This document shows positions 4,880 to 60,640 of a DNA stretch of 64,000 nucleotides, one piece after another (the first letter of the stretch is position 1; each line of letters starts with the position of its first letter). The notes beneath the pieces are model-generated. The model was given only the letters and a program-made list of their open reading frames with translations, had not been told where the DNA came from and searched no databases. Both the position numbers and the translations under genes were made by a program. The stretch is from contig JAKSUL010000002.1 of the NCBI GenBank assembly GCA_024409055.1, positions 20,217 through 84,216 of the forward strand, in the 5' to 3' direction. The stretch comes from Bacilli bacterium. GTDB lineage: Bacteria > Bacillota_I > Bacilli_A > RFN20 > CAG-826.

Positions 4880-5359
4880 TCACTCCTTTGTAACGACCGC
4901 CACGGCGATCGCTTTAATAGCTTTTCCTTCCCCTATTTCACCAAGGCCTTCGTTGGTCATGGCTTTAACCGAGACGTCTTCGACACCGCATTCCAATGTC
5001 TTTGCGATGTTTTCCCTCATTGCGGGGATGTGTTTCATGAGGTGAGGTTTTTCACAGATTATCGAGACATCGATGTTCGATAAACGATATCCGTGTTCTT
5101 TAACTTTGTTAATGGCGAATTTGGCGATGATGGACGAATCCATGCCTTCGCATTTAGGATCATCGGTCCTGAAATGAACCCCGATGTCTCCTTCCGCCAC
5201 GCTTCCTAATAGGCAGTCGGCGATAGCGTGATAAACAACGTCGGCATCGCTATGTCCTAATAATCCTTTCTCAAACGGCAATTTCACGCCGGCAAGAATC
5301 AAGTCGCGGCCCTCCACTAGCAAGTGGATGTCTTCGCCATATCCTATGCGGACGCTCAT
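4880..5359 (-). CDS. ispF: 2-C-methyl-D-erythritol 2,4-cyclodiphosphate synthase
   Basis: RIGYGEDIH, GHSDADVVYHAIAD, KAMTNEGLG; ends in TGA. Confidence 0.95.
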   Translation of the reverse strand: MSVRIGYGEDIHLLVEGRDLILAGVKLPFEKGLLGHSDADVVYHAIADCLLGSVAEGDIGVHFRTDDPKCEGMDSSIIAKFAINKVKEHGYRLSNIDVSIICEKPHLMKHIPAMRENIAKTLECGVEDVSVKAMTNEGLGEIGEGKAIKAIAVAVVTKE

Positions 5360-47148: not shown

Positions 47149-47476
47149 GGGGCTAGTTTGAAGCAAATCACCCGGGATGTGCGGAACGAAGTTCTCGCCG
47201 ACCGATAGAGACAAATAGGGATCAATCTCAAATTAGCATAGCGCGATGGATGTGTTAGGTCGCGCTAATGCGGACAGTATCGCCCAAGCCAAAAGAGGAT
47301 GCCTTCAGGAACGTTCCGTAAATCCGGGGCCTGAATTAATCGATGGTGACGCTCCGCACAAGATGTAGATCTTGAGCATGTGGCCATCCCAAGGAGGATG
47401 AAACACCAGTAGCCATGGTTCGCCTAAGTGCGAGCAGTTGGCTGCAAAAGGTGTTTTCGTTGTGGGATGGTTTTTC
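47149..47476 (+). ncRNA. Candidate large structured RNA or cis-regulatory leader of unknown family
   Basis: TATAAT at 47140-47145; stems 47178-85/47353-60, 47236-46/47260-71, 47304-09/47330-35; 87-nt rod 47384-47470 followed by a T tract; no convincing ORF. Confidence 0.65.
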
Positions 47477-47523
47477 TTTCCTTTCGTGAACGCCTAATTA
47501 GTTCAAAGGAAGGAGAAATATAC

Positions 47524-48441
47524 ATGCAAAATCTTGAATTAATTAAATTTGTAAATGGTGGCACTGAACTTGAAGTAAATGTCTCACCGGAAGAAAACAC
47601 GGTTTGGCTCTCAAGAGATCAAATGGCGGCACTTTTTAATAGAGACAGAACCGTAATTTCAAGGCACATAAAATCGGTTTTAACCGAAGAAGAACTCGAG
47701 GAAAAAAGCAACGTGCATTTTTTGCACATTCCAAATTCCGACAAATCGGTAGCATTTTTCAGTCTAGACGTAATTCTCTTGGTAGGATACCGCGTCAAAT
47801 CCAAAAACGGCATCCTTTTCAGAAAATGGGCGAGCAATATCCTCAAAGATTACATGATCAAGGGGTATGTGGCTAATGAGAGGCGCCTTTCTGCTCTCAA
47901 TAAAACGATCGAATTGCAATCAAAAATCATCGCCACTGCTTATGAGATTGATTCCAACGACGTCAAGAAGGTCGTCGATTCTTATATCGATGCCCTAACG
48001 CTTTTGGACAGTTACGATCATCAATGTGTTCCAGAACTCAAAAAAGATGAGAACTATGTTCAGCTAACATCAAGCGACATAAGAACCATCATCAAAAACA
48101 TGGAGTACTATGGCAAAAGCGATGTCTTCGGTGTAGAAAAAGAAAAAGGAAAAATCGATGGAATTCTCGGGGCAGTTTATCAAAACGTCTTTGGCCAAGA
48201 GGTTTATCCGTCAATTAAAGAAAAGGCTGCGCATCTACTCTATTTCATGGTTAAGGATCATCCCTTCGCTGACGGATGCAAAAGGATTGCGGCCGCTTCG
48301 TTTTTAACATTCTTGGCAAAAAACAAAGCATTGAATCCAAAACTATCTTCACCTGTTCTAGTTGCCGTTACCTTGCTTACGGCAGAGTCAAACCCAAAGG
48401 ATTTCAAATCAATCATAAAAGTGATTGCAAACATCATTTAA
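47524..48441 (+). CDS. RhuM-like N-terminal domain + Fic/Doc domain protein
   Basis: TVWLSRDQMAALF...SVAFFSLDVILLVGYRVKS...FRKWA; HPFADGCKRIAA Doc-type motif; SD AAGGAG before ATG at 47524. Confidence 0.85.
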   Translation: MQNLELIKFVNGGTELEVNVSPEENTVWLSRDQMAALFNRDRTVISRHIKSVLTEEELEEKSNVHFLHIPNSDKSVAFFSLDVILLVGYRVKSKNGILFRKWASNILKDYMIKGYVANERRLSALNKTIELQSKIIATAYEIDSNDVKKVVDSYIDALTLLDSYDHQCVPELKKDENYVQLTSSDIRTIIKNMEYYGKSDVFGVEKEKGKIDGILGAVYQNVFGQEVYPSIKEKAAHLLYFMVKDHPFADGCKRIAAASFLTFLAKNKALNPKLSSPVLVAVTLLTAESNPKDFKSIIKVIANII

Positions 48442-48489
48442 ATGAGCAAATAAAAATCCCCGGTTACCCGAGGATTCACATGATAATTT

Positions 48490-48519
48490 TGGTGGACCTA
48501 TAGGAACAGTAAACGAACC
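48490..48519 (-). repeat. Degenerate tRNA 3'-end copy (att-like island boundary)
   Basis: Minus strand GGTTCG-TTTACTG-TTCCTATAGGTCCACCA vs tRNA-Leu GGTTCG-A-TTCCTGTTGGGCCCACCA; followed by a hairpin at 48452-48478. Confidence 0.45.
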
Positions 48520-48529
48520 GCTTTCCACA

Positions 48530-48889
48530 TCAATATTTAAATGTCGGGGCGATGTGAAATAAACACGAGTTTGCTTCGAGCGTCTTCTTTTTTTCAAGAA
48601 TCTCCGTGGCTGACCCTCGAAAGAGAATTCCCCCTGATTTCAGAAAGGTTTTGCTCGCAGCAAAATTCATGCCGGTGCTTTTTGATATGACTTTGATCTG
48701 CTCCATCGTGGGATTCTCAAAAGGCTCAATACAAATCGAATACACCGTATCGTCGAGATCGATTTCTTCCCATTTTGTAGTGGCAATTTTGCATCCACAC
48801 TTGGGGCATGAAAGATTCAATGCTGGCTTCTCGTATTCTTGAAGCATTTCGGCACCGCAATCGGGGCAAATGTATTTATTGCTTTCCAT
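48530..48889 (-). CDS. Zn-ribbon + L7/L12-CTD-like small protein (immunity-like)
   Basis: CPDCG...CPKCG, then IKVISKSTGMNFAASKTFL; start MESNKY. Confidence 0.55.
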   Translation of the reverse strand: MESNKYICPDCGAEMLQEYEKPALNLSCPKCGCKIATTKWEEIDLDDTVYSICIEPFENPTMEQIKVISKSTGMNFAASKTFLKSGGILFRGSATEILEKKKTLEANSCLFHIAPTFKY

Positions 48890-49625
48890 CTTGGTTCCTT
48901 TCAATTTCTTGAAGGCTCTTAACAGTTTTTAATTCTTCGATCGTGTGATAAGAATATGCGTATCTTTCCACTTCGTAGCCATCTAATGTGGTGTATCGAT
49001 CTTCACTGATACTTTTAACACTTATGGAATCTGCGATTATCCCCTGCAGGTACTGAGGTTTGCTTCTGCTGTAGCAAGAAGCCAAAACAAGAGAATTCCT
49101 GAAATATTTGGAGTGTTTTGATATGAAATCGGAATTGACACGAAGCCCAATCTTTTTAAGCAAGAAGTACATAAACACACCAATGCTTCTCGTGTTTCCC
49201 TCCCTAAAGCAGTGTATCTGCCATAACTGCTGAATAATACTTGAGGCTTTCAATACTTTTTCCTTGGCAGAAAGGGAATCCCACTTAATCGCCAGGAACT
49301 CCTTTTCCAAATCGCCCATCTCTTTTTCTATATAAGAAGCAGGCGTGTAGTCAACCGAAGCTCCCTCTAAAATGGGCTCACTCTTATAAATGGTTATGCT
49401 TCTGAATTCTCCAGCCCATTCAAAGATCGGAGAAAATAAAAACGCATGTATTTTCTTTATATCGTAGACGGAATTGATCTCGAATCCATTCTTTCTTAGA
49501 GCGATGATTCTAGCCGGCACAATATCACTCTCGAATCGTTCTAGCACAGACCGATTATCAATTCCCAATTTGTTTTTCAAAACCCCGGTTTGTTCATCAA
49601 CATATGGATCGTGAGCCTTAGACAT
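48876..49625 (-). CDS. Fic family AMPylase toxin
   Basis: DPYVDEQTGVLKNKL, WAGEFR, HCFREGNTRS Fic motif; start MSKAHD. Confidence 0.9.
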   Translation of the reverse strand: MSKAHDPYVDEQTGVLKNKLGIDNRSVLERFESDIVPARIIALRKNGFEINSVYDIKKIHAFLFSPIFEWAGEFRSITIYKSEPILEGASVDYTPASYIEKEMGDLEKEFLAIKWDSLSAKEKVLKASSIIQQLWQIHCFREGNTRSIGVFMYFLLKKIGLRVNSDFISKHSKYFRNSLVLASCYSRSKPQYLQGIIADSISVKSISEDRYTTLDGYEVERYAYSYHTIEELKTVKSLQEIERNQDGKQ

Positions 49626-49938
49626 TTTGGTACATCCTCCTGATCGCGAATTCATAAGTCTCTAGATCTATTACGCCCTCTTGAAAGAGCCCAAGAAGTT
49701 TTTTCGCCTTATCAGATGGAGCCTTGGAATCAACAGTGCTGATGCCGATTGCAAAATCCACAAGATTATCAGAATCTGGTAACGATATCTCAAAGGGAAT
49801 CCCCTTCCTCAGGGACACTTGGTTCAGGAACAAAGAAATCGCGTAGCTAGTCGTAATACCCAACTTATCGAAAATAACTTCGCATTCTTTTTTGACATCC
49901 GGCGACACTCTGGTGTGCACAATTGAACTTTTTTCCAT
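49618..49938 (-). CDS. RelB/DinJ-type RHH antitoxin fused to a VbhA/FicA-like helical domain
   Basis: VHTRVSPDVK..CEVIFDKLGIT.S.AI.LFL.QV....GIPFEI, then FAIGISTVDSKAPS...FQEGVIDLE. Confidence 0.75.
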   Translation of the reverse strand: MEKSSIVHTRVSPDVKKECEVIFDKLGITTSYAISLFLNQVSLRKGIPFEISLPDSDNLVDFAIGISTVDSKAPSDKAKKLLGLFQEGVIDLETYEFAIRRMYQNV

Positions 49939-49956
49939 ATCGTTTACCTCGCAGAT

Positions 49957-49985
49957 ATTGTATCACTTTTGTTATACACGTTCAA
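49957..49985 (-). promoter_or_regulatory. Sigma-A promoter with a palindromic operator for the antitoxin-Fic operon
   Basis: Minus strand TTGAAC-17 bp-TACAAT; overlapping inverted repeat TGTATCAC-TTTT-GTTATACA (49959-49978). Confidence 0.7.
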
Positions 49986-50098
49986 TGAACTCAATTGAAA
50001 AAGCCTCAGATCTCTCCGAGGCTATTGCCCTATGTGATGGGCCAAGCGACTCAGAATACGAACCGCTCAGATTTGTTGTCGAGATTACGCTTAAAAGA

Positions 50099-50560
50099 TT
50101 AATAAAATATTTCGTTATCGGATACGGAGGAAACAATGTCCTCAATCGTCTTGTCGATAATTACGAACGATCGGATCGAGTCGAGGGATTCAAAATCAGC
50201 AGTAAACACGTTATCCGATCCAAGACCATATTTTTTATCTCCATCTCGTTCATCAATTGCGGAGATTGTATAGAAGACATCTTTGTAATTGAATGAAACA
50301 TCAAATCCTTGAGATATCAGTTTTAAGAAAACATCAATGTGCTGAGATCTGGCTCCTTTCGTTCTATCGATTATCTCACCTATTTCGATAATGTGAGTAT
50401 GCGGGACTTTATGCGTATCCGGCCTACCATGATCCGTATAATCTACATCTTTATACGCGTTCCCGTTTTCATCGTAATGCCTAATTCGAATCACTTTCCC
50501 TTGTTCATCAACCTGCTCAATCGTTGAATTTGGGGTCGATGCGCCTCGGCACAGTCGCAA
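50099..50560 (-). pseudogene. Polymorphic-toxin tip (Ntox24-like) read in frame with an immunity-like ORF; 5'-truncated
   Basis: PNS...RHYDENG.AYKDVDYTDHGRPDTHKVPHTH; internal SD AAAGGAG before the second half; in-frame TGA immediately upstream. Confidence 0.55.
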
Positions 50561-50596
50561 TCAAAACTGCTGCAATGAATACGGTTTTTGTTTTTG

Positions 50597-50956
50597 CTAT
50601 TTTTGCGCGGAGTTGACAACCAGAAGGTAAGATTCCTTGCTCTTTGGCAATAGCATTAACGACAATTCGTCCCTAATATCATATGAATAAATGTTTTCAA
50701 TGACGCCGACCTCGATTACGTCTTTGCAATACTGGTCAGAAGAGGTGACACACTCTTCTATAAAAGAATAGATATCGCTGAGTTCTTCACTGATTTTTTT
50801 CTCGAAACAAGCTAGGAAATACGGCATGAAGACATCTTCTAAGACGACAATCGAGCCGGTATCGATTCCGTCTTGCCATGAGGTCTCCTTATCAAAAGAA
50901 CCTTTGATGTTTGGAAATCTGTTTAAAAGCATGGAGTTAAATTCTCTTGAATCCAT
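50597..50956 (-). CDS. Small acidic immunity-like protein (DUF7674-like, tentative)
   Basis: Stop/start overlap with the upstream toxin-like ORF; RFP...SWQDG..TG..VV.EDVFMPY. Confidence 0.55.
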   Translation of the reverse strand: MDSREFNSMLLNRFPNIKGSFDKETSWQDGIDTGSIVVLEDVFMPYFLACFEKKISEELSDIYSFIEECVTSSDQYCKDVIEVGVIENIYSYDIRDELSLMLLPKSKESYLLVVNSAQK

Positions 50957-51342
50957 TAGTATTCTCCTTTCAATGATTTTTCCATTTTCGATAAAAGTCT
51001 TTCTCCAAAAGCGCGATCTGTAGGGCTTAATTCTTCTTTCGCTAATATCCTCTGCAAATTGACAATACGCTGCTCGATTTTGATGATGTGATTCCTACCC
51101 CCGACAAGTTCACCAGTTTTTACCTGTTTGCTTGCGGCTGCCATCGCACTTCCATCACCAACTTCCGCTCCTTCCCGGTAGAGCTCGCCGACGAGATTTT
51201 TCAATCTTTGATTGTTTACGGACTCTTGGATCGCAATGCCTCTGTCCGATACCCTTTTTGCCGCAAAGGTTTGAATATCGAGAATTAATCGGAATTTTTT
51301 GGCTGCTCCAACGAAAGAAAAGAGGGTGGTTTTACCTTTCAT
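50956..51342 (-). CDS. Stand-alone polymorphic-toxin-like domain with an N-terminal Prp-type cleavage motif
   Basis: SD GGAGGTG; LILDIQTFA-AK motif; LYREGAEVGDGS...TGELVGGRNH. Confidence 0.55.
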   Translation of the reverse strand: MKGKTTLFSFVGAAKKFRLILDIQTFAAKRVSDRGIAIQESVNNQRLKNLVGELYREGAEVGDGSAMAAASKQVKTGELVGGRNHIIKIEQRIVNLQRILAKEELSPTDRAFGERLLSKMEKSLKGEY

Positions 51343-52036
51343 CGGTTTTCACCTCCGAAAGTCTTCTTTCCCTGTCTTTCTTATTCTCCTTCATCGTATA
51401 GGAGTCATATTGGTAGACCGGAATATCCTTGAGTCTTGCAATGCCGAAGATATCGTCAGAGGCCGGTCCATAGACAATAATGCCCGTTGGTTCCAGCTCA
51501 CCGATTATTTTATCGACCTGCTCAGCGAATATCCACCTATTGTCCAGACGATGCGTGAATCCATGGGTTCCAATGGCGATAAGCGTATGCTTGGGGAATG
51601 CCTCCAGGCACGACAAGGTTCTGTCGTCCCCGATCCTGACGTTTGGAATCACCTTCATGCCGCGGGAGCCGTAATAATAGGTGATGGCGAGATTTAGATA
51701 GATCTGGCTCTTTTGGACCACAAGTGGCATGTTGTCGTATGGGCTTGGGTCAACCCCAACGATGCACGCGTACTTCGATAGTTTCTCAACATATCTTTTG
51801 GGATTATTGAGAATCGGGGTGAATCCCTCGTCGTTGCAATAGAAGCACATGCCGGTAGTCGAAGGATCGACGACGTCTTTTCTTCTGTCCCACTGAATTA
51901 TTTCTTTGGGTGGCTCGGTGGCGACCATCCATCTTTCTCTGACCGGGTAGTTGTCGGTCGGAGTGCGGTTTGCCCCGTCAATCAGGTACGCAAGATAAAG
52001 ATCCCTGACGTAAGGCGTCTTTGATTTCTTAATCAT
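51332..52036 (-). CDS. DUF4417 family protein
   Basis: FYCND, PDPS-like DPSPY, GMKVIPNVRIGD...PKHTLIAIGTHG, IIVYG; start MIKKSK. Confidence 0.75.
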   Translation of the reverse strand: MIKKSKTPYVRDLYLAYLIDGANRTPTDNYPVRERWMVATEPPKEIIQWDRRKDVVDPSTTGMCFYCNDEGFTPILNNPKRYVEKLSKYACIVGVDPSPYDNMPLVVQKSQIYLNLAITYYYGSRGMKVIPNVRIGDDRTLSCLEAFPKHTLIAIGTHGFTHRLDNRWIFAEQVDKIIGELEPTGIIVYGPASDDIFGIARLKDIPVYQYDSYTMKENKKDRERRLSEVKTDER

Positions 52037-52157
52037 ATGAATAATAACTTTCCGGCACATTTTGCGTGCCTAAAATGGTTGGATATGCTACTATTCACCT
52101 GCTATCGATGTGCTTCAGCATATCCGCAACCGTATCCACTGCAATGGATGCGGTTTT

Positions 52158-52736
52158 TTAGTTCTTTAGGTATTTCTTTATATCTTCGCCGATAAATTCA
52201 CCTCCAAGTTTTTCGTGACGGCATTCCGCGCATCCTCTTGAGACACAATAGGTCTTTCTGATCTGTTCGGCGGTCATGCCCCTGGCGACGGCTGCCGGCA
52301 TAAGGAATTCCGATGCAAACCTATCGGCCTGCCATTCGGGATCTTCGAATACACGCGGCTTTCTTTCGCTCGTCGACCTTGCGAGGCTCACGCCTCCAAG
52401 CATCCTGTGAAGGGCGAAATGCCCTATCTCGTGGCAAATCGTGAACGGGGCCCTCTTGTATTTATGACGGCAGGCCTCGTGCATCACGGATTCCTTGATG
52501 TAAATCATCCCTGACGAGATGTCGGTTTTTGCCTCTTCCCCTTTTTCGAAAACGGGGTCATCGTCAGGCATTACCATGTATTGGAATCCATAGTCTTCCC
52601 AGAGAACGCAAAGAGCATCCAAAAGCTTGGGGGCATTGATTCTCTCATTGTCACTAAGCTTTAGGAATCGCCTTACATCTTGGGCGATGTTCCTAATCTC
52701 GACAATCTTTAAAGGTTTTGCGTAAACATAGCCCAT
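52158..52736 (-). CDS. ImmA/IrrE family metallo-endopeptidase
   Basis: FTICHEIGH (HExxH), PEWQADRFASEFLMP; start MGYVYA. Confidence 0.88.
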   Translation of the reverse strand: MGYVYAKPLKIVEIRNIAQDVRRFLKLSDNERINAPKLLDALCVLWEDYGFQYMVMPDDDPVFEKGEEAKTDISSGMIYIKESVMHEACRHKYKRAPFTICHEIGHFALHRMLGGVSLARSTSERKPRVFEDPEWQADRFASEFLMPAAVARGMTAEQIRKTYCVSRGCAECRHEKLGGEFIGEDIKKYLKN

Positions 52737-53092
52737 CAATCGCCCTCCTTCAGGATAGACAGAACCTTTTCGCACTCTTCCTCGCTCATGCCGGGAAGTT
52801 TTCTCGCAAGCATGACTGCAAGATCCCTTTGGAGCGGCAAAGCGCTGGCAAGAGATATGTCAATCGAGGAAACGGAATGGTCCAAAGCGACCAGGAGTTC
52901 ATCGGTTGTTTTTTTGCTGAGCCTGTATTTGTGAGAGAGTTTCTCGATGAAGCCCTCCGGAACGGCTCTCGTGCCGGTCTCGATTGCAGAAAGATAAGAC
53001 AGGGAGATCTCCATCTTCTTAGCCATGGCGGCCATGTTCTCGTCCTTCTCGATTCTCAGCTTTCTGAGCGCCTTTCCAAATTCAGTTGTCAT
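52736..53092 (-). CDS. XRE family HTH transcriptional regulator
   Basis: FGKALRKLR...MAKKMEISLSYLSAIETG; stop overlaps the ImmA/IrrE start. Confidence 0.88.
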   Translation of the reverse strand: MTTEFGKALRKLRIEKDENMAAMAKKMEISLSYLSAIETGTRAVPEGFIEKLSHKYRLSKKTTDELLVALDHSVSSIDISLASALPLQRDLAVMLARKLPGMSEEECEKVLSILKEGD

Positions 53093-53242
53093 AATTCCTC
53101 CTATGCGAAGCGATTTTACTTCGCTGAAGATATTATTCCACAGTTTTTGTAGAATGCAACTACATTTGTGTGAAAAAGAAAAAACGCGATTGTCTCGCGT
53201 CTTTCGGATGTATATCAGAACGATTCCGTTCCAGATGTCTAC

Positions 53243-53327
53243 TGGTGGGCCCAACAGGAATCGAACCTGCACGGATCGCTCCACTAGATCCTAAGTCTAG
53301 CGCGTCTACCAGTTCCGCCATAGGCCC
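53243..53327 (-). tRNA. tRNA-Leu (anticodon TAG)
   Basis: GGGCCTA acceptor stem, CTTAGGA anticodon loop, long variable arm, GGTTCGATTCC, encoded CCA. Confidence 0.95.
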
Positions 53328-54717: not shown

Positions 54718-55206
54718 ATGAAAGTCATAAGAAAACAAACCAATTCCAAAGATTGCATCGTCTGCGGAGTAAACAACAAAGCCGGGATCAACGCCTCTTT
54801 CTATGAAATGGAAGACGGCACAATCAACGCTTTATTCTCCTTTGGATTCATCCATCAAAGTTACCCAGAAAGAACGCATGGCGGACTTATATCCGCGGTT
54901 TTAGATGAACTAATCGGAAGAGCCATTTGGATAAACGAACCAGATCAATGGGGCGTCACGATGAAACTAACCGTCGAATACCATAAACCAGTCCCATACG
55001 GCGTGCCCTTAAAAGGAATGGGAAAAATCACAAAATCCACCAAGCTCACTTTCGAAGGAATGGGAGAAATATATGACGAGGAAGGCCACATGCTCGCAAG
55101 GGGATACGCGACCTACTTCAAACTGCCTCTAGAAAAGATTGCCACATCCGCCCACGCCGAAGAAGTTAACGTCATGATTCCAGACGACGTCAAAGAAATC
55201 GCTTAA
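54718..55206 (+). CDS. PaaI/hot-dog fold thioesterase
   Basis: CIVCG..N..G, HGGLISAVLDE. Confidence 0.85.
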   Translation: MKVIRKQTNSKDCIVCGVNNKAGINASFYEMEDGTINALFSFGFIHQSYPERTHGGLISAVLDELIGRAIWINEPDQWGVTMKLTVEYHKPVPYGVPLKGMGKITKSTKLTFEGMGEIYDEEGHMLARGYATYFKLPLEKIATSAHAEEVNVMIPDDVKEIA

Positions 55207-55256
55207 TGAAGGAAAAGCGCTGGAGAGTTTCCAACGCTTTTTGTTTTACGTTCTTA

Positions 55257-56246
55257 TTAATCGCCAATTGCGTTTCTAATAAAGCTCTCGATTTTTTCAA
55301 ACGGAATAACGTCGAGATTATCGTATAAATCGGTATGAACCGCTCCCTCGATTGCCAAGAATTCTTTATTGGATGCATACAAAGAATCTTTGACCATTTT
55401 TTCATAAGCGTCTTTTCCGAAATAATAAGAATGGGCCTTTGTTCCGTGGACAATTAACACGGCGCTTCTAATTTCATTCGCGTAACGAAGAATGGGCTGA
55501 TTCAAAAAGGAAACGCATCCAATAACGTTCCACCCCTCATTGGAATTGAGACTCCTTGGGTGGTACGCTCTTCCTTTGTAGTACTCGCTATAGTCTTTGA
55601 CGAAGAAAGGAGCATCACTCGGGACCGGTAGAGGTAAACATCCACCCGCCCTTTTGTAACAGCCGGTTCTAAATGCTTCGGTTCTTTCCTTATTTAATGC
55701 AACTCTTTTATTGTATCTAGCTTCTTCGGAGTCTTCAGAATCGAAATATCCGTTGGAGTTTACTCTCGACATATCGTACATCGTCATAGCGACCGTCGCT
55801 TTAATTCTTGTATCAATAGAGGCCGTATTTAAAGCAAGCCCACCCCATCCGCAAACGCCGATAATAGAAATCTTGTCCGGATCGACATCGCCTCTATTGG
55901 ATAAATAATCAATCGAAGCCTGAAAATCCTCCGTGTTGATATCTGGCGAAGCCATATATCTAGGTTCTCCTTTTGATTCACCAGTGAAAGAAGGGTCGAA
56001 AGCAATTGTCAAAAAGCCTCTTTCCGCCATCGTTTGAGCATATAATCCTGAGCATTGCTCCTTCACCGCGCCAAAAGGCCCAGATACAGAAATTGCGGGA
56101 AGTTTCCCTTTGGCGTTTTTCGGTTTGTATAAATCGGCAATCAATTCGATTCCATATCTATTCTTGAATGAGATTTTTTCGTGATCGACCAACTCTGATT
56201 GAGGGAATGTCTTATCCCATTCCTGCTGAATACTTTGTTTTTTCAT
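55257..56246 (-). CDS. Alpha/beta hydrolase (YcjY-like)
   Basis: GPFGAVKEQ, FDPSFTGES.GEPR, GVCGWGG, HTDLYD; start MKKQSI. Confidence 0.85.
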   Translation of the reverse strand: MKKQSIQQEWDKTFPQSELVDHEKISFKNRYGIELIADLYKPKNAKGKLPAISVSGPFGAVKEQCSGLYAQTMAERGFLTIAFDPSFTGESKGEPRYMASPDINTEDFQASIDYLSNRGDVDPDKISIIGVCGWGGLALNTASIDTRIKATVAMTMYDMSRVNSNGYFDSEDSEEARYNKRVALNKERTEAFRTGCYKRAGGCLPLPVPSDAPFFVKDYSEYYKGRAYHPRSLNSNEGWNVIGCVSFLNQPILRYANEIRSAVLIVHGTKAHSYYFGKDAYEKMVKDSLYASNKEFLAIEGAVHTDLYDNLDVIPFEKIESFIRNAIGD

Positions 56247-56292
56247 GATAATGCCTTCCTTGATTTCGCTATTACGCGACCATATATTAATA

Positions 56293-56323
56293 TTTGTAAT
56301 ACCTGAACCTAACTTTAGGTCAA
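56293..56323 (-). promoter_or_regulatory. MerR-type promoter/operator
   Basis: Minus strand TTGACC-19 bp-TACAAA with dyad ACCTAA-AG-TTAGGT in the spacer; divergent merR-family gene. Confidence 0.7.
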
Positions 56324-56343
56324 GCATTAAAAGAGGATCTTCT

Positions 56344-56781
56344 ATGTATTCAATCGGACAAGTTTCAAAAATGTTTAATCTGCCTATCTCGACGTTGCGT
56401 TACTACGACAAAGAAGGGTTTTTCCCTTACATGGAAAGGAAGGGCGGAATAAGGGTCTTCACCGATAAAGAAATCGAGTCGATAAGAGTAATCGAATGCC
56501 TAAAAGAATCCGGCCTAGAAATCAAAGACATAAAGCTTTTCTTCAAATGGGTTGGCGAAGGCAGCTCCTCATACGGCAAAAGGAAAGAATTATTCGAAAA
56601 TAGGAAAAAAGCCTTGGAAGAAGAGTTGAGGAAACTAAGTAGAATCCATGCAATGTTGGAATTCAAATGCTGGTACTATGAAACCGCCGTCAAAGACGGA
56701 AACGAAGATAGAATCAACAAGATGCTCCCGAATAGTCTTCCAGATGATATCCAAAAGTTATACGACGAGGCCCATAAATAA
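56344..56781 (+). CDS. MerR family regulator (AdhR-like)
   Basis: MYSIGQV...STLRYYDKEG, CL..SGLEIKDIK; start at 56344. Confidence 0.9.
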   Translation: MYSIGQVSKMFNLPISTLRYYDKEGFFPYMERKGGIRVFTDKEIESIRVIECLKESGLEIKDIKLFFKWVGEGSSSYGKRKELFENRKKALEEELRKLSRIHAMLEFKCWYYETAVKDGNEDRINKMLPNSLPDDIQKLYDEAHK

Positions 56782-56842
56782 CGTCGAGATTAGCAAAACA
56801 CCGCCCGAAATGGACGGTGTTTTCATTAAGAGGTTTCTGCAA

Positions 56843-57289
56843 TTAGTCTTCTACGGCAACCGTGCCATCTTCTTTAACGGTGATCGTCATATCGTCCTTA
56901 ACATAGTTGAGGAATTCTTCGCCTAGAGAATCGACGACCGGCATCTTGACGTCTTTTAGCCACACGTCCGCCAAGATCGCGCCGGCAGCGGCAAGCGAAT
57001 CGATCGGTTCGGAGAATAGCATCATCGCCGGTTGGCGCTTCATTTGGCAGGCACAATAGAGGACTAAACCTCCAGTCGTCGAACCAATAGTCCTAGGAAG
57101 GCAAAGAGCCTTTCCCGCCATTTGTTTTCCGTATAGATCCGGGTTGTTTTGATCACCGCAAGTGGCTTTTTTATCACCGAACTGGAGAGCCTTTTGGAAC
57201 GAGGCCAATGTGTTTAAACCGGCATGGGACACAACGGCTTTGGCCGTCATGGTTCCACCAGCAACAACTCTACCTTTGAATTCTTTCAT
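56843..57289 (-). CDS. Aconitase X swivel domain protein (DUF126)
   Basis: GKALCLP..IGST.G; adjacent to DUF521. Confidence 0.8.
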   Translation of the reverse strand: MKEFKGRVVAGGTMTAKAVVSHAGLNTLASFQKALQFGDKKATCGDQNNPDLYGKQMAGKALCLPRTIGSTTGGLVLYCACQMKRQPAMMLFSEPIDSLAAAGAILADVWLKDVKMPVVDSLGEEFLNYVKDDMTITVKEDGTVAVED

Positions 57290-58572
57290 TATTTGTTACC
57301 TCCGGTGATTTCGACCAAGATTTCATCTTCCGTGTAGTACTTAGCGGTTGTATAAGTCCTTAACTTGTTAGAACAGGTGATTGTCGGCACTTTTCCGGCA
57401 AGTGGGTTGTTCATATACATAAGCGGGCAAATATAAGACAAGATTACGCCCGTATTCTTAAGTCTTTCGTAATTTGGGGTCGACTTGAACTTCTCTATTA
57501 CATCAGGCGCGGCGGTGAAGACGGTAGGAATGCTAACTTTCTTCAATCCTTTTTCTTTTAAACGAGCCTCGACGCGGTCGGTCCAGGAGTTAAGCTGAGC
57601 AAGAGACAAGTGCGGGCATCCGATGAAGCAAAGCTTAGGGGTCGCGTCTTTCTTTTTCCAAACAACGGGATAGTTCTTGTAGACCCTTTCAAGCTCAGCG
57701 TCGTCGATGACGTAAACCTGAGCGTTCTCCAAGATCAAATCTCTACCATATTTAACGGCTTCCGGCGTGATGTTTTCGATGTGGTATAAACCAACCGCAC
57801 CATTGCTGGCCGTCGCGGCGCCGAAGTCTTTTAAGTAGGCTTTCGCGTTATCGTCCAATTGGCCCAAATACTTGTCTAAGCCGATGACATAAGGAACATC
57901 CTCGACGACCTTCATGCCGATGGCGGAGCCCAAAAGCTGAGCTTCCGGTTTTTTGCTCGTCTTAATTTCGACGATCCACTTCGCTTTGCGGCCTTCGTCT
58001 TTTAGTAGTCCAAAGGAAGGAACGTAACCAACGATGGAACCCATGATGTCGATGATGCCGGAGTTGCGGTTACATCTAGCGCCTAAAACGGAGTTGGCGT
58101 AAACGACGGCACTGCTTTCGCTCCAAGACAAGACATCGCCGAATTTCGGAGTGTTTCCGACTTCGTCCATATAACAAGTGCACGTGAATGCGTTTTTGTT
58201 CAACAAACCTAATTTTTCAAGTTGGGCTTCATACTGCTCTTGCTTTGAATACATGAAGTTTTTGAAGATGAATTTTTCCAAAAGGTTCGCTGGAACATTC
58301 GGATCTAATGGGCGCGGATCACAAGTGAACTTTTGTTCGCTTAAAGCACCGGCTTCGATCAGTTCGTCCAAAAGGTCATAAACCGCAGTTAAAGCCTTTA
58401 GGCCGAAGGATGTGACAAGGTGATTGTAGGATGAGGTGATTTTTTCCATAGAATCAGCCCCAAAGAGTTCACCGTATCTGATCATGGTCTCCATGACCTT
58501 GGCCTTGGTTTCGCCCTGTTTACCTTCAAGAATCTCTTTTTGTTCTTGGGTCAATTTCATTTTGTATTCCAT
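57289..58572 (-). CDS. Aconitase X catalytic domain protein (DUF521)
   Basis: TCTCY, WSESSAVVYANSVLGARCNR, IGCPH, CP. Confidence 0.85.
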   Translation of the reverse strand: MEYKMKLTQEQKEILEGKQGETKAKVMETMIRYGELFGADSMEKITSSYNHLVTSFGLKALTAVYDLLDELIEAGALSEQKFTCDPRPLDPNVPANLLEKFIFKNFMYSKQEQYEAQLEKLGLLNKNAFTCTCYMDEVGNTPKFGDVLSWSESSAVVYANSVLGARCNRNSGIIDIMGSIVGYVPSFGLLKDEGRKAKWIVEIKTSKKPEAQLLGSAIGMKVVEDVPYVIGLDKYLGQLDDNAKAYLKDFGAATASNGAVGLYHIENITPEAVKYGRDLILENAQVYVIDDAELERVYKNYPVVWKKKDATPKLCFIGCPHLSLAQLNSWTDRVEARLKEKGLKKVSIPTVFTAAPDVIEKFKSTPNYERLKNTGVILSYICPLMYMNNPLAGKVPTITCSNKLRTYTTAKYYTEDEILVEITGGNK

Positions 58573-58582
58573 ATTTTTTCCT

Positions 58583-60640
58583 TTAAATCTTCATTGCGAC
58601 TTCGTAGGCTCTCCAAATAACCGTCCTTAAGTTGCCGACGCTTAAACAGTCGCCAACCAAATAGACATTCTTTCCTTTTTCAACAAGTGGCGTTGGAATG
58701 TATCCAGCGGAGGAGATGACTGAATCGCAAGGAACTTCGAACGTCTTACCTTCTTTATTGGCGCAGACGATCTTACCGTCTTGGACTTCTTTCAAGGATG
58801 TCTCCAAATAGACCGGTACTTTTTTCCAAGCAAACCATTCTCTTAAATAAGAGGAGTTAGCCAAGCAAACGCCTTTTTGAGCCACCAAATCATCTTTCAT
58901 CTCGACAATTGAAACATCATGTCCTTTCAAAGCGAGTTCATAAGCGACTTCGCAACCCGTGAGGCCACCACCGATAACGGCGACGTTTTTACCCACTTCT
59001 TTTTCTCCGAGGAGATATTCGCAGGCCTCAACCATCTTTTCGTTTCCGGGGACATTCTTAAGGACGCGAGCCTTGCTGCCCGTCGCGACGATGACGGGGT
59101 AACCTTTGAATTCGTCTAAAGACGTGACTGTTGTATTGAGTCTAACTTCAATGCCGAGCTTTTCGATTTCCCTGATATACCAGGCTAATAGCTCCCTTAA
59201 TCTGCCTTTATAAGATTCACTCGAAGCGGCGATGAATGTGCCGCCTAATCTATCGCCCTTTTCAAGGATAACCGGCTTATGGCCTCTTAGCGCCAATACA
59301 CGAGCGGCTTCCATACCGCCGATGCCACCGCCGACGACATAAACGGTCTTTGCCTTTTTGGCTTTCTTGATGTTGTGTTTGTTCCACTGCATCATTTCGG
59401 CGTTGACCGCGCATCTAGACAAATGGAGCGAATCGCTTAGCTCTTGATCGTTCGGCACGCCTTTGTAGTGACACATATTGAAGCATCCGCTATGGCAAAG
59501 AATGCATGGCCTGATGTCTTCTTTTCTATCTTCCAATACTTTGGTGAACCACTCTGGGTCGGCCAGCCAATTACGAGCGAACCCAACGCCGTCAAGTTCG
59601 CCATTTTTAATGGCTTCGGCACCAGCTTCAAGAGTCATGCGACCAGCGCACACAACCGGTATGTCGACGAATTTCTTGATATGCTTTACATCTTCCAAGT
59701 TGCAGTTTTCCGGCATATAGACCGGCGGGTGAGCCCAGTACCAGGCATCGTAAGTGCCGTTATCGCAGTTAAGCATGTCGTAGCCGGCTTCTTGCAAATA
59801 TTTGGCTGCGATTTCACTTTCGGCCATGTCTCTTCCGACTTCGACGAATTCTTCGCCCGGAAGAGCGCCTTCTCTCATGCCTTTTGTTTTGGAAACGACC
59901 GAATACCTTAGCGAGACCGGGAATTCTTTTCCACAGGCTTTCTTGATCGCTTTGACAATCTCGGCCGCGAACCTATATCTGTTTTCCAAAGATCCGCCAT
60001 ATTCATCAGTTCTCTTATTAACGTATTTAAGGGTGAACTGGTCTAACAGATAGCCTTCGTGAACGGCGTGAACTTCAACGCCATCGACTCCAGCGTCTTT
60101 TAACTGTTTTGCCGTTTTAGCAAAGCTATCGATGAAATATTGAATTTCTTTTTTGGTCATTTCCCTAGAAGGAAGTTTGTCTGACCACCTATTCGGAGCC
60201 GGGCTAGCCGAGGCTGTGATTTTGTCGAAATTCATAACGGGTTTCGACAAGACTCGGAGGACTTTGTTGTTATGGAGTTTCTCCATCATCTCGCTAACCG
60301 TGAACGAACGCCCGAATCCAGCAGTCAATTGAACGAACAACTTGGCTCCTGTCTTGTGAAATTCTGGCATCCACTTGGCAAGATCCTTGTACATCTTTTT
60401 CTTCCTATGGAGCCACTGCCCGAGCATTGGGTTATAAACGGGTTGGCAGCCAGGAAGCACTAAACCGCAGTTGTTCTTAGCAACCTCCATGATGAACTTG
60501 GCCCCATCTTTATCGAAATGGTTGATTTCCATCCAACCGAAAAGATTGGTGCCACCCATAGACGTCAAGACGATGCGATTCTTAATTTCGACATCGCCGA
60601 TCTTCCATGGGGTTAATAAAATTTCTAAGTTTTTCTCCAT
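58583..60640 (-). CDS. Fe-S/FAD-containing Old Yellow Enzyme (2-enoate reductase-like)
   Basis: HAVHEGYLLDQF, CILCHSGC...C Fe-S motif, two Rossmann motifs; start MEKNLE. Confidence 0.88.
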   Translation of the reverse strand: MEKNLEILLTPWKIGDVEIKNRIVLTSMGGTNLFGWMEINHFDKDGAKFIMEVAKNNCGLVLPGCQPVYNPMLGQWLHRKKKMYKDLAKWMPEFHKTGAKLFVQLTAGFGRSFTVSEMMEKLHNNKVLRVLSKPVMNFDKITASASPAPNRWSDKLPSREMTKKEIQYFIDSFAKTAKQLKDAGVDGVEVHAVHEGYLLDQFTLKYVNKRTDEYGGSLENRYRFAAEIVKAIKKACGKEFPVSLRYSVVSKTKGMREGALPGEEFVEVGRDMAESEIAAKYLQEAGYDMLNCDNGTYDAWYWAHPPVYMPENCNLEDVKHIKKFVDIPVVCAGRMTLEAGAEAIKNGELDGVGFARNWLADPEWFTKVLEDRKEDIRPCILCHSGCFNMCHYKGVPNDQELSDSLHLSRCAVNAEMMQWNKHNIKKAKKAKTVYVVGGGIGGMEAARVLALRGHKPVILEKGDRLGGTFIAASSESYKGRLRELLAWYIREIEKLGIEVRLNTTVTSLDEFKGYPVIVATGSKARVLKNVPGNEKMVEACEYLLGEKEVGKNVAVIGGGLTGCEVAYELALKGHDVSIVEMKDDLVAQKGVCLANSSYLREWFAWKKVPVYLETSLKEVQDGKIVCANKEGKTFEVPCDSVISSAGYIPTPLVEKGKNVYLVGDCLSVGNLRTVIWRAYEVAMKI

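Follow-up and report, generated by a model that had tools for sequence, protein, structure and literature searches.

An operon pairing an enoate reductase-type flavoenzyme with a two-subunit aconitase X may encode a coenzyme A-independent dehydration–reduction pathway

In a 64,000-nucleotide stretch of DNA, hereafter the window, from a Bacilli bacterium of the GTDB CAG-826 lineage (GenBank assembly GCA_024409055.1, contig JAKSUL010000002.1, positions 20,217 to 84,216), we found three genes arranged as an operon (Table 1). The first encodes an Old Yellow Enzyme (OYE) with Oxidored_FMN and Pyr_redox_2 domains, both above the Pfam cut-off, and is followed after a gap of 10 bp by the gene for the large subunit of aconitase X (AcnX-L; AcnX, PF04412 (DUF521), 302 bits against a cut-off of 31.5). 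The gene for the small subunit (AcnX-S; AcnX_swivel, PF01989 (DUF126), 46.8 bits against a cut-off of 27) shares 1 bp with that of the large subunit in the sequence TAATG. A sequence-only reading of the window had described the same spacing, the same two DUF families and a HAVHEGY signature in an iron–sulfur (Fe-S)/FAD OYE; the coordinates and Pfam assignments agree with it, and the signature lies at residues 191–197 of a protein that also has four Fe-S cysteines. The host genome (1.78 Mb, 97% complete) holds each of the three genes in single copy, and the OYE of the operon is the sole OYE that we found in it. Relatives in the host's family mostly have genomes of 0.8–1.4 Mb.

Table 1. Position and features of the operon and of the hairpins on either side of it (positions in the window)
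Feature	Coordinates	Strand	Details
OYE gene	60640-58583	minus	ATG 60640 to TAA 58583; 685 aa; GAAAGGAG ribosome site
AcnX large subunit gene	58572-57289	minus	427 aa
AcnX small (swivel, domain 4) subunit gene	57289-56843	minus	148 aa
Terminator-like hairpin	60823-60794	minus	from pattern scan; 3' of tRNA-Thr, parts the tRNA cluster from the operon; no adjacent regulator gene
Hairpin flanked by A/T runs	56795-56823		separates the small subunit gene from the convergent MerR gene; read from the sequence

The arrangement of the operon is conserved. A search of GTDB with AcnX-L identified at least 595 species-level genomes, and we compared the neighbourhoods of the best 80 of these matches, which were 71–76% identical to the query and came from Clostridia, Bacilli, Collinsella, Sphaerochaeta and Bacteroidales. 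Among these 80 loci, the small subunit adjoined the large subunit in every case, and an OYE lay directly upstream of AcnX in 70, within 200 bp in 69 and at 294 bp in one. The arrangement is therefore not due to chance. Clustering of the 80 neighbourhoods revealed no conserved fourth gene. At two loci (L093 and L098) the OYE is placed after the two AcnX genes and at another (L125) it is divergent, so that linkage survives reordering. In seven loci (L002, L004, L013, L019, L023, L034 and L041), a DUF5058-type protein and a second membrane protein are encoded downstream, mostly together with an M20 amidohydrolase; Pfam searches of this module were run for the L041 and L019 copies.

The two enzymes also co-occur when their genes are not linked. 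In a sample of 399 Clostridia genomes, core AcnX (full-length, at least 57% identity) was found in 23 genomes, one of which was the chosen centre of the sample, and the OYE clade close to that of the query was found in 21; both were present in 14, where 1.2 would be expected, an excess that is overstated because the sampled genomes are related. The two genes were adjacent in nine of the 14 and the OYE was elsewhere in five. The other nine AcnX genomes encoded a non-orthologous OYE of 753–765 aa (27–31% identical to that of the query) directly upstream of AcnX, so all 23 genomes with core AcnX hold a HEGY-type reductase. Similarly, in a sample of 299 genomes from the host's own phylum, the close OYE clade was present in 11 of 14 AcnX genomes (on another contig in six), two further AcnX genomes had a long substitute OYE next to AcnX, and the sole exception carried a divergent AcnX copy (49–50%). 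Clostridium carboxidivorans AcnX is paired with a third OYE type (42% identical to the query OYE) and a sister AcnX with a fourth (34%). Thus, at least four OYE subclades, with 55–79%, 42%, 34% and 27–31% identity to the query, pair with AcnX or its sister, and all of them have HEGY; an unlinked OYE at locus L168 reads HAAHGY in its place. The close OYE clade was found without AcnX in 7 of 21 and 4 of 15 genomes. This asymmetry, together with the repeated pairing with non-orthologous HEGY reductases, is as a feeder-and-sink relation predicts. The sequence-only reading had coupled the OYE to AcnX, and the conserved operon, the co-occurrence of unlinked genes and these repeated pairings bear out that link. 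A same-genus copy shares 60% identity with the query AcnX, whereas copies from Clostridia and Sphaerochaeta share 75–76%, and monophyly of the query with the same-genus copy was rejected (approximately unbiased (AU) test, p-AU 8e-60). On the evidence of these sequences, the cassette moves horizontally between lineages.

By sequence, the AcnX pair belongs to AcnX type II, in which the large subunit (domains 1-2-3) and the small subunit (domain 4) are separate. The structural model of AcnX-L (predicted local distance difference test (pLDDT) 94.9) had as its top Foldseek match 7cnr_A, the AcnX of Thermococcus kodakarensis (TkAcnX; template modelling (TM) scores 0.80/0.88, 29% identity, E 5e-32), and the small subunit matched 7cnr_B in the PDB (E 1.6e-8). 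The two subunits were modelled as a heterodimer with a score of 0.85, compared with 0.00 for the best control, with contact agreement of at least 96% and partner pLDDT of at least 91; 58 of 80 solved pairs but only 2 of 110 mismatched pairs reached the mark that we used, and the pass probably reflects likeness to the solved 7CNR complex. We mapped residues by alignment to 7CNR and 7CNQ, taking their roles from published work (PMC8184944). The cluster ligands C131, C319 and C382 and the catalytic residues E152, S153, K403 and Y407 of AcnX-L were invariant in 130 aligned rows, and the general base S70 of AcnX-S, in the sequence T-I-G-S70-T-T-G-G, was invariant in 119. Elimination of the 3-hydroxyl of a carboxylate at a [4Fe-4S] cluster is therefore the expected chemistry. 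In the heterodimer model, residues 53–54, 151–153 and 407 of AcnX-L meet residues 70–76 of AcnX-S. The pocket loop of AcnX-L reads H51-L-V53-T-S-F56-G; near the site lies D84-P-R86, whose D84 and R86 are conserved. The small subunit has an invariant T72, the residue through which AtAcnX binds the ring nitrogen. The loop that in TkAcnX grips the substituent lying trans to the carboxylate would be non-polar in AcnX-L. Matches in the ESM Atlas had generic names only. Elsewhere in the family, two AcnX-L proteins (P0263 at L088:275-1861, and P0264) have long N-terminal leaders with twin-arginine-like motifs, suggesting an exported aconitase X. AcnX-like pairs at L161-L163 and L082 lack the catalytic Glu, Lys and Ser (that at L163 also lacks two of the cysteines), although their genes are intact; from their sequences, it is possible that they are pseudo-enzymes or have a new function.

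Both characterised AcnX activities fit the query poorly. We rejected phosphomevalonate dehydratase (PMDh; type IIb) because, where TkAcnX has the GVSYKN loop and N79, the query has TSFGLK and D84: G48-V49-S50, N53 and N79 align to T54-S55-F56, about K59, and D84. The type IIb enzymes TkAcnX (PDB 7CNR/7CNS) and Aeropyrum pernix PMDh resemble the query in their two subunits, fold and three-Cys [4Fe-4S] set (C110/C283/C342, retained as C131/C319/C382), as well as in the Ser base, the Glu/Ser/Lys/Tyr core and an acyclic substrate that yields an E-enoate. By contrast, the query is bacterial, lacks the phosphate loop and N79, and has a reductase partner and no UbiD or mevalonate pathway. We found neither HMG-CoA reductase (PF00368) nor UbiD (PF01977) in the 97% complete host genome, whereas IspF was found (ispF lies in the window at about 4892-5353); the sequence-only reading had judged a mevalonate role unlikely from ispF, and these absences and the replaced loop reinforce that judgement. 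We also rejected a dehydratase of cis-3-hydroxy-L-proline, as D203, I206, W35 and C510 are replaced by V53, F56, the L29 region and L384. Of the substrate residues D203, I206, W35 and T72, only T72 is kept, and the HIDGC motif of loci L179 and L181-185 reads HLVTS in the query. Hydroxyproline AcnX enzymes share the catalytic core with the query but are only 21–26% identical to it (26% for the AcnX of a Paracoccus hydroxyproline cluster) and carry a [2Fe-2S] set that includes C510; the query scored 138.9 bits with the corresponding NCBIfam model, whose cut-off is 700, and there is no hydroxyproline cluster. Proline racemase (PF05544) and OCD-family pyrroline-2-carboxylate reductase (PF02423) were not found in the host genome, in which the Ldh-type pyrroline reductase was not searched for genome-wide. 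An AU test that forced the query to group with hydroxyproline-type sequences gave p 0.16 with a long outgroup branch, and we gave it no weight. It is very improbable that an ordinary dehydratase of either kind stands beside the OYE by accident, even though the fold and catalytic core are the same, TkAcnX is the closest solved structure and T72 is kept: the substrate residues of both activities are replaced, and the determinants and partner genes of neither are present. The query shares with the bacterial AcnX types IIc-IIf a build of two subunits and the lack of landmark residues of either known activity; no function is known for those types (PMC8184944, PMC10040528), and the source paper (Watanabe et al. 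2021) gives no partner enzyme or substrate for them.

The OYE is predicted from its sequence to be an Fe-S/FMN/FAD enzyme of the clostridial 2-enoate reductase type that acts on free 2-enoates. It contains H191-A-V-H194-E-G-Y197, YDAWYWAHPP from residue 297, two GxGxxG motifs (437 and 557) and conserved Fe-S cysteines at 379, 382, 386 and 410. Its HAVHEGYLLDQF and YDAWYWAHPP sequences match the alignment of Clostridium sporogenes FldZ with the enoate reductases (Enr) of C. tyrobutyricum, C. kluyveri and Moorella thermoacetica (PMC5882074 supplement; family motifs described in PMC11759058), and HEGY is the motif of free-acid enoate reductases (PMC5882074). The query shares with these enzymes the TIM barrel and FAD/NADH domains, HAVHEGYLLDQF, YDxWYWxHPP, the four Fe-S cysteines and a size of about 75 kDa; unlike them, it is operonic with a dehydratase, appears to fall in a separate clade and has insertions, with 23 rather than 11 residues before the fourth Cys. 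Scores of 348 bits for BilR (NCBIfam cut-off 750) and 340 bits for BaiCD (cut-off 825) led us to reject both identities. Enoyl-CoA hydratase, acyl-CoA dehydrogenase, family III CoA-transferase and aconitase were not found in the host genome, which favours free acids as intermediates and an excreted end product.

From the gene anatomy, conservation, co-occurrence and residue content, we infer an activity, direction, substrate and physiological role for the cassette. We propose, with a probability of about two in three, that it carries out a CoA-independent, two-step reductive dehydroxylation. As the kept catalytic residues suggest, the AcnX heterodimer would take up a free 3-hydroxy-carboxylate; the [4Fe-4S] iron held by C131, C319 and C382 would accept the 3-hydroxyl and S70 of AcnX-S would abstract the C2 proton, assisted by K403 and E152, giving an (E)-2-enoate. 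The family motifs of the OYE predict that NADH electrons would then pass via FAD and [4Fe-4S] to FMN, so as to reduce the C=C bond of the enoate. The resulting saturated acid would probably be excreted, which would provide a sink for NADH and perhaps also serve detoxification. With AcnX, a reductase that is also able to exist alone would gain a wider range of acceptors. The 2-hydroxyacyl-CoA dehydratases FldBC and HadBC, together with a reductase, belong to the reductive Stickland branch and follow the same dehydrate-then-reduce electron-sink logic. Their substrates, however, are 2-hydroxy CoA esters, which they convert by a radical mechanism that relies on an ATP-driven activator, whereas the cassette is predicted to carry out a polar elimination from a free 3-hydroxy acid. 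Both enzyme families, and dehydration followed by reduction in CoA-dependent systems, are known; a full-text literature search, with paywalled papers outside its scope, returned no paper that connects AcnX or DUF521 to enoate reductases, to the gut, to cinnamates or to coumarin, and none that describes the pairing.

A lead to the substrate came from Rhodococcus. The best plasmid match to the query AcnX is that of Rhodococcus opacus PD630 (49% identity), which lies among genes for an FAD monooxygenase, meta-cleavage hydrolases, 3-carboxyethylcatechol 2,3-dioxygenase, major facilitator superfamily (MFS) transporters and the lower meta-pathway. A metagenomic locus (L081; AcnX 46%) contains this set of genes differently arranged; there, the genes after AcnX, all on its strand, encode a transporter, a monooxygenase, a hydrolase and a dioxygenase in turn. 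Such monooxygenase, hydrolase and dioxygenase genes degrade hydroxyphenylpropionates and hydroxycinnamates (PMC6222606). The pocket of the Rhodococcus clade is nearly identical to that of the query (HVVTSMG compared with HLVTSFG, with DPRP, ESSAV and KLRTYT shared), as are DQNN and IGSTTGG in the small subunit, and in a quick tree, from which the AcnX relationships given here are taken, this clade is sister to the gut clade (Shimodaira–Hasegawa-like approximate likelihood ratio test (SH-aLRT) 95). The simplest reading is that AcnX makes an E-cinnamate from a 3-aryl-3-hydroxypropionate, and that aerobes would oxidise this cinnamate and anaerobes reduce it. An aromatic substrate, converted from 3-aryl-3-hydroxypropionate through cinnamate to arylpropionate, is the most likely class and takes about half of the probability given to the two-step pathway, although we name it only tentatively. 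A somewhat broader proposal, that this AcnX subclass is a CoA-free 3-aryl-3-hydroxypropionate dehydratase or a cis-trans cinnamate isomerase feeding an enoate reductase, thereby yielding arylpropionates from plant phenolics, has in our estimate a little less than an even chance. Of the substrates suggested by the sequence-only reading, a plant phenylpropanoid is thus favoured by the Rhodococcus context and the non-polar loop, whereas that loop would make a tricarboxylate less likely. In an older record of the PD630 plasmid (L173:12001-13728), AcnX is annotated as one fused gene of 575 aa, while the newer assembly splits it in two; the assemblies may differ in sequence here.

Several points weigh against an aromatic substrate or against the two-step pathway itself. 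FldZ reduces cinnamate and p-coumarate and not aliphatic enoates (PMC5882074), which speaks for an aromatic substrate, but other clostridial enoate reductases have a broader substrate range, and the query OYE belongs to a clade of its own. The aromatic context comes from two related loci, whose AcnX proteins are 60% identical to each other; 46–49% identity between query and Rhodococcus clade allows a change of substrate; and a Bacillus member of this sister group has only LysR beside AcnX. No further Rhodococcus-type AcnX was found in 331 sampled Actinomycetota genomes, so the context could not be widened; none of our conclusions draws on the unpublished genome G825. The host genome encodes two AMP-binding ligases, which makes acyl-CoA formation possible. 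Ten of the 80 loci lack an adjacent OYE (two of these genomes were checked, and both encode a 55–57% identical OYE elsewhere), no transporter travels with the cassette across the 80 loci, and relatedness of the sampled genomes inflates the co-occurrence, as noted above. Finally, we are aware of nothing that supplies the gut with plentiful free 3-aryl-3-hydroxypropionate, which leaves room for a Z-to-E isomerase or a non-aromatic substrate.

The non-aromatic possibility, in which the same two steps act on an aliphatic acid (3-hydroxy fatty acid, or 3-hydroxybutyrate or isovalerate type) or on an amine-bearing, carnitine-like one, shares the mechanism and therefore takes the other part of the probability given to the two-step pathway. 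We consider it somewhat unlikely. The invariant T72 and the conserved D84 and R86 speak for it, as do a sister AcnX and OYE encoded among MttB/MtbB methylamine methyltransferases and a fused sister next to a beta-keto-acid cleavage enzyme, a 3-hydroxyacyl dehydrogenase-like gene and an amino-acid permease; however, the pocket loops of those sisters differ (HFVIAHA and HFSISGS), whereas HxVTSxG, DPR and CPxxxM are all retained in the Rhodococcus clade. The M20 amidohydrolase of the seven-locus module could free N-acyl groups, but the module is found in fewer than 10% of loci. The isomerase alternative is distinctly improbable. Here AcnX would hydrate, rotate and dehydrate a Z-enoate, so that an E-specific reductase or monooxygenase could use cis-cinnamates such as ring-opened coumarins or light-formed cis-hydroxycinnamates; this would account for a role before an aerobic ring hydroxylase as well as before an anaerobic reductase, and would need no dietary free 3-hydroxy acid. 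A route from coumarin through o-coumarate to melilotate has been reported (PMC7913881). Yet characterised AcnX enzymes perform a single stereospecific elimination (PMC8184944), and with fixed geometry Z- and E-enoates would give opposite enantiomers, so that net isomerisation would need an extra flip. Reported gut coumarin metabolism is lactone reduction by NemA (PMC13200227), and our full-text literature search turned up nothing on a bacterial isomerase of this kind.

That AcnX reactions are reversible, PMDh having been assayed as a hydratase (PMC10040528), counts against the proposed direction and is compatible with the two enzymes acting in parallel: AcnX would hydrate, and OYE reduce, the same inhibitory enoate, co-regulated for detoxification. 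TetR, MarR or LysR regulators adjoin some AcnX copies, as such co-regulation would allow. This explanation nevertheless leaves unexplained why core AcnX is nearly always accompanied by a HEGY OYE when that OYE frequently occurs on its own. With aryl enoates, moreover, the equilibrium favours the conjugated enoate. We therefore regard parallel action as about as improbable as isomerisation, and retain dehydration followed by reduction as the preferred reading.

Among the sister AcnX genes, one (L084:1-16482, L085; 43% identity) is accompanied by a HEGY OYE and surrounded by genes for MttB and dimethylamine methyltransferases. A number of these methyltransferase genes were called as two consecutive pieces, and pyrrolysine amber codons are likely in them; judging from these neighbours, a methylated-amine hydroxy acid such as carnitine is a candidate substrate. 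The fused sister AcnX (L086:8001-9812, L087) has the large domain first and the swivel last, which reverses the type I order. Another sister (P0258, 43%) lies among genes for a short-chain dehydrogenase/reductase (SDR), acetoacetate-decarboxylase-like, aldehyde:ferredoxin oxidoreductase, 3-hydroxyacyl dehydrogenase-like and short OYE proteins.

Beside the operon in the window (54718-56781) are genes for a hot-dog thioesterase (plus strand), an S15-like alpha/beta hydrolase (minus strand) and a divergent MerR regulator; the hydrolase gene has a G+C content at third codon positions (GC3) of 0.42, compared with 0.53–0.56 for the operon. None of the three is seen again next to other AcnX loci, and on that ground we rejected a functional link between the operon and the MerR/hydrolase pair. 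The hairpin next to the MerR gene, which was identified by reading the sequence only and is not in the pattern-scan list, is likely to be a bidirectional terminator closing the operon. Further along, beside a tRNA-Leu gene (53243-53327), the region 47428-53327 contains genes that look mobile by motif, comprising two Fic-like proteins, a RelB-like antitoxin, short toxin- or immunity-like open reading frames, an HExxH peptidase and a helix-turn-helix (HTH) repressor; judged from the list of open reading frames, it is a possible integrated island.

The genomes that carry the AcnX clade come mostly from gut or other anaerobic, plant-fed habitats. The clade is kept even in genomes of 0.9–1.4 Mb, and it therefore probably handles a common compound. 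Cultured carriers are C. carboxidivorans P7, Waltera intestinalis, Bariatricus massiliensis, Collinsella massiliensis and R. opacus PD630, and the Rhodococcus context narrows the substrate question to a short test panel. If our interpretation is correct, it would give aconitase X a third activity and add a new step to gut polyphenol metabolism, and the same AcnX type would take part when Rhodococcus degrades hydroxyphenylpropionates aerobically. Phenylpropionates in the gut are metabolites with activity on the host, and a route to them that had gone unrecognised would be relevant to work on diet and the microbiome.

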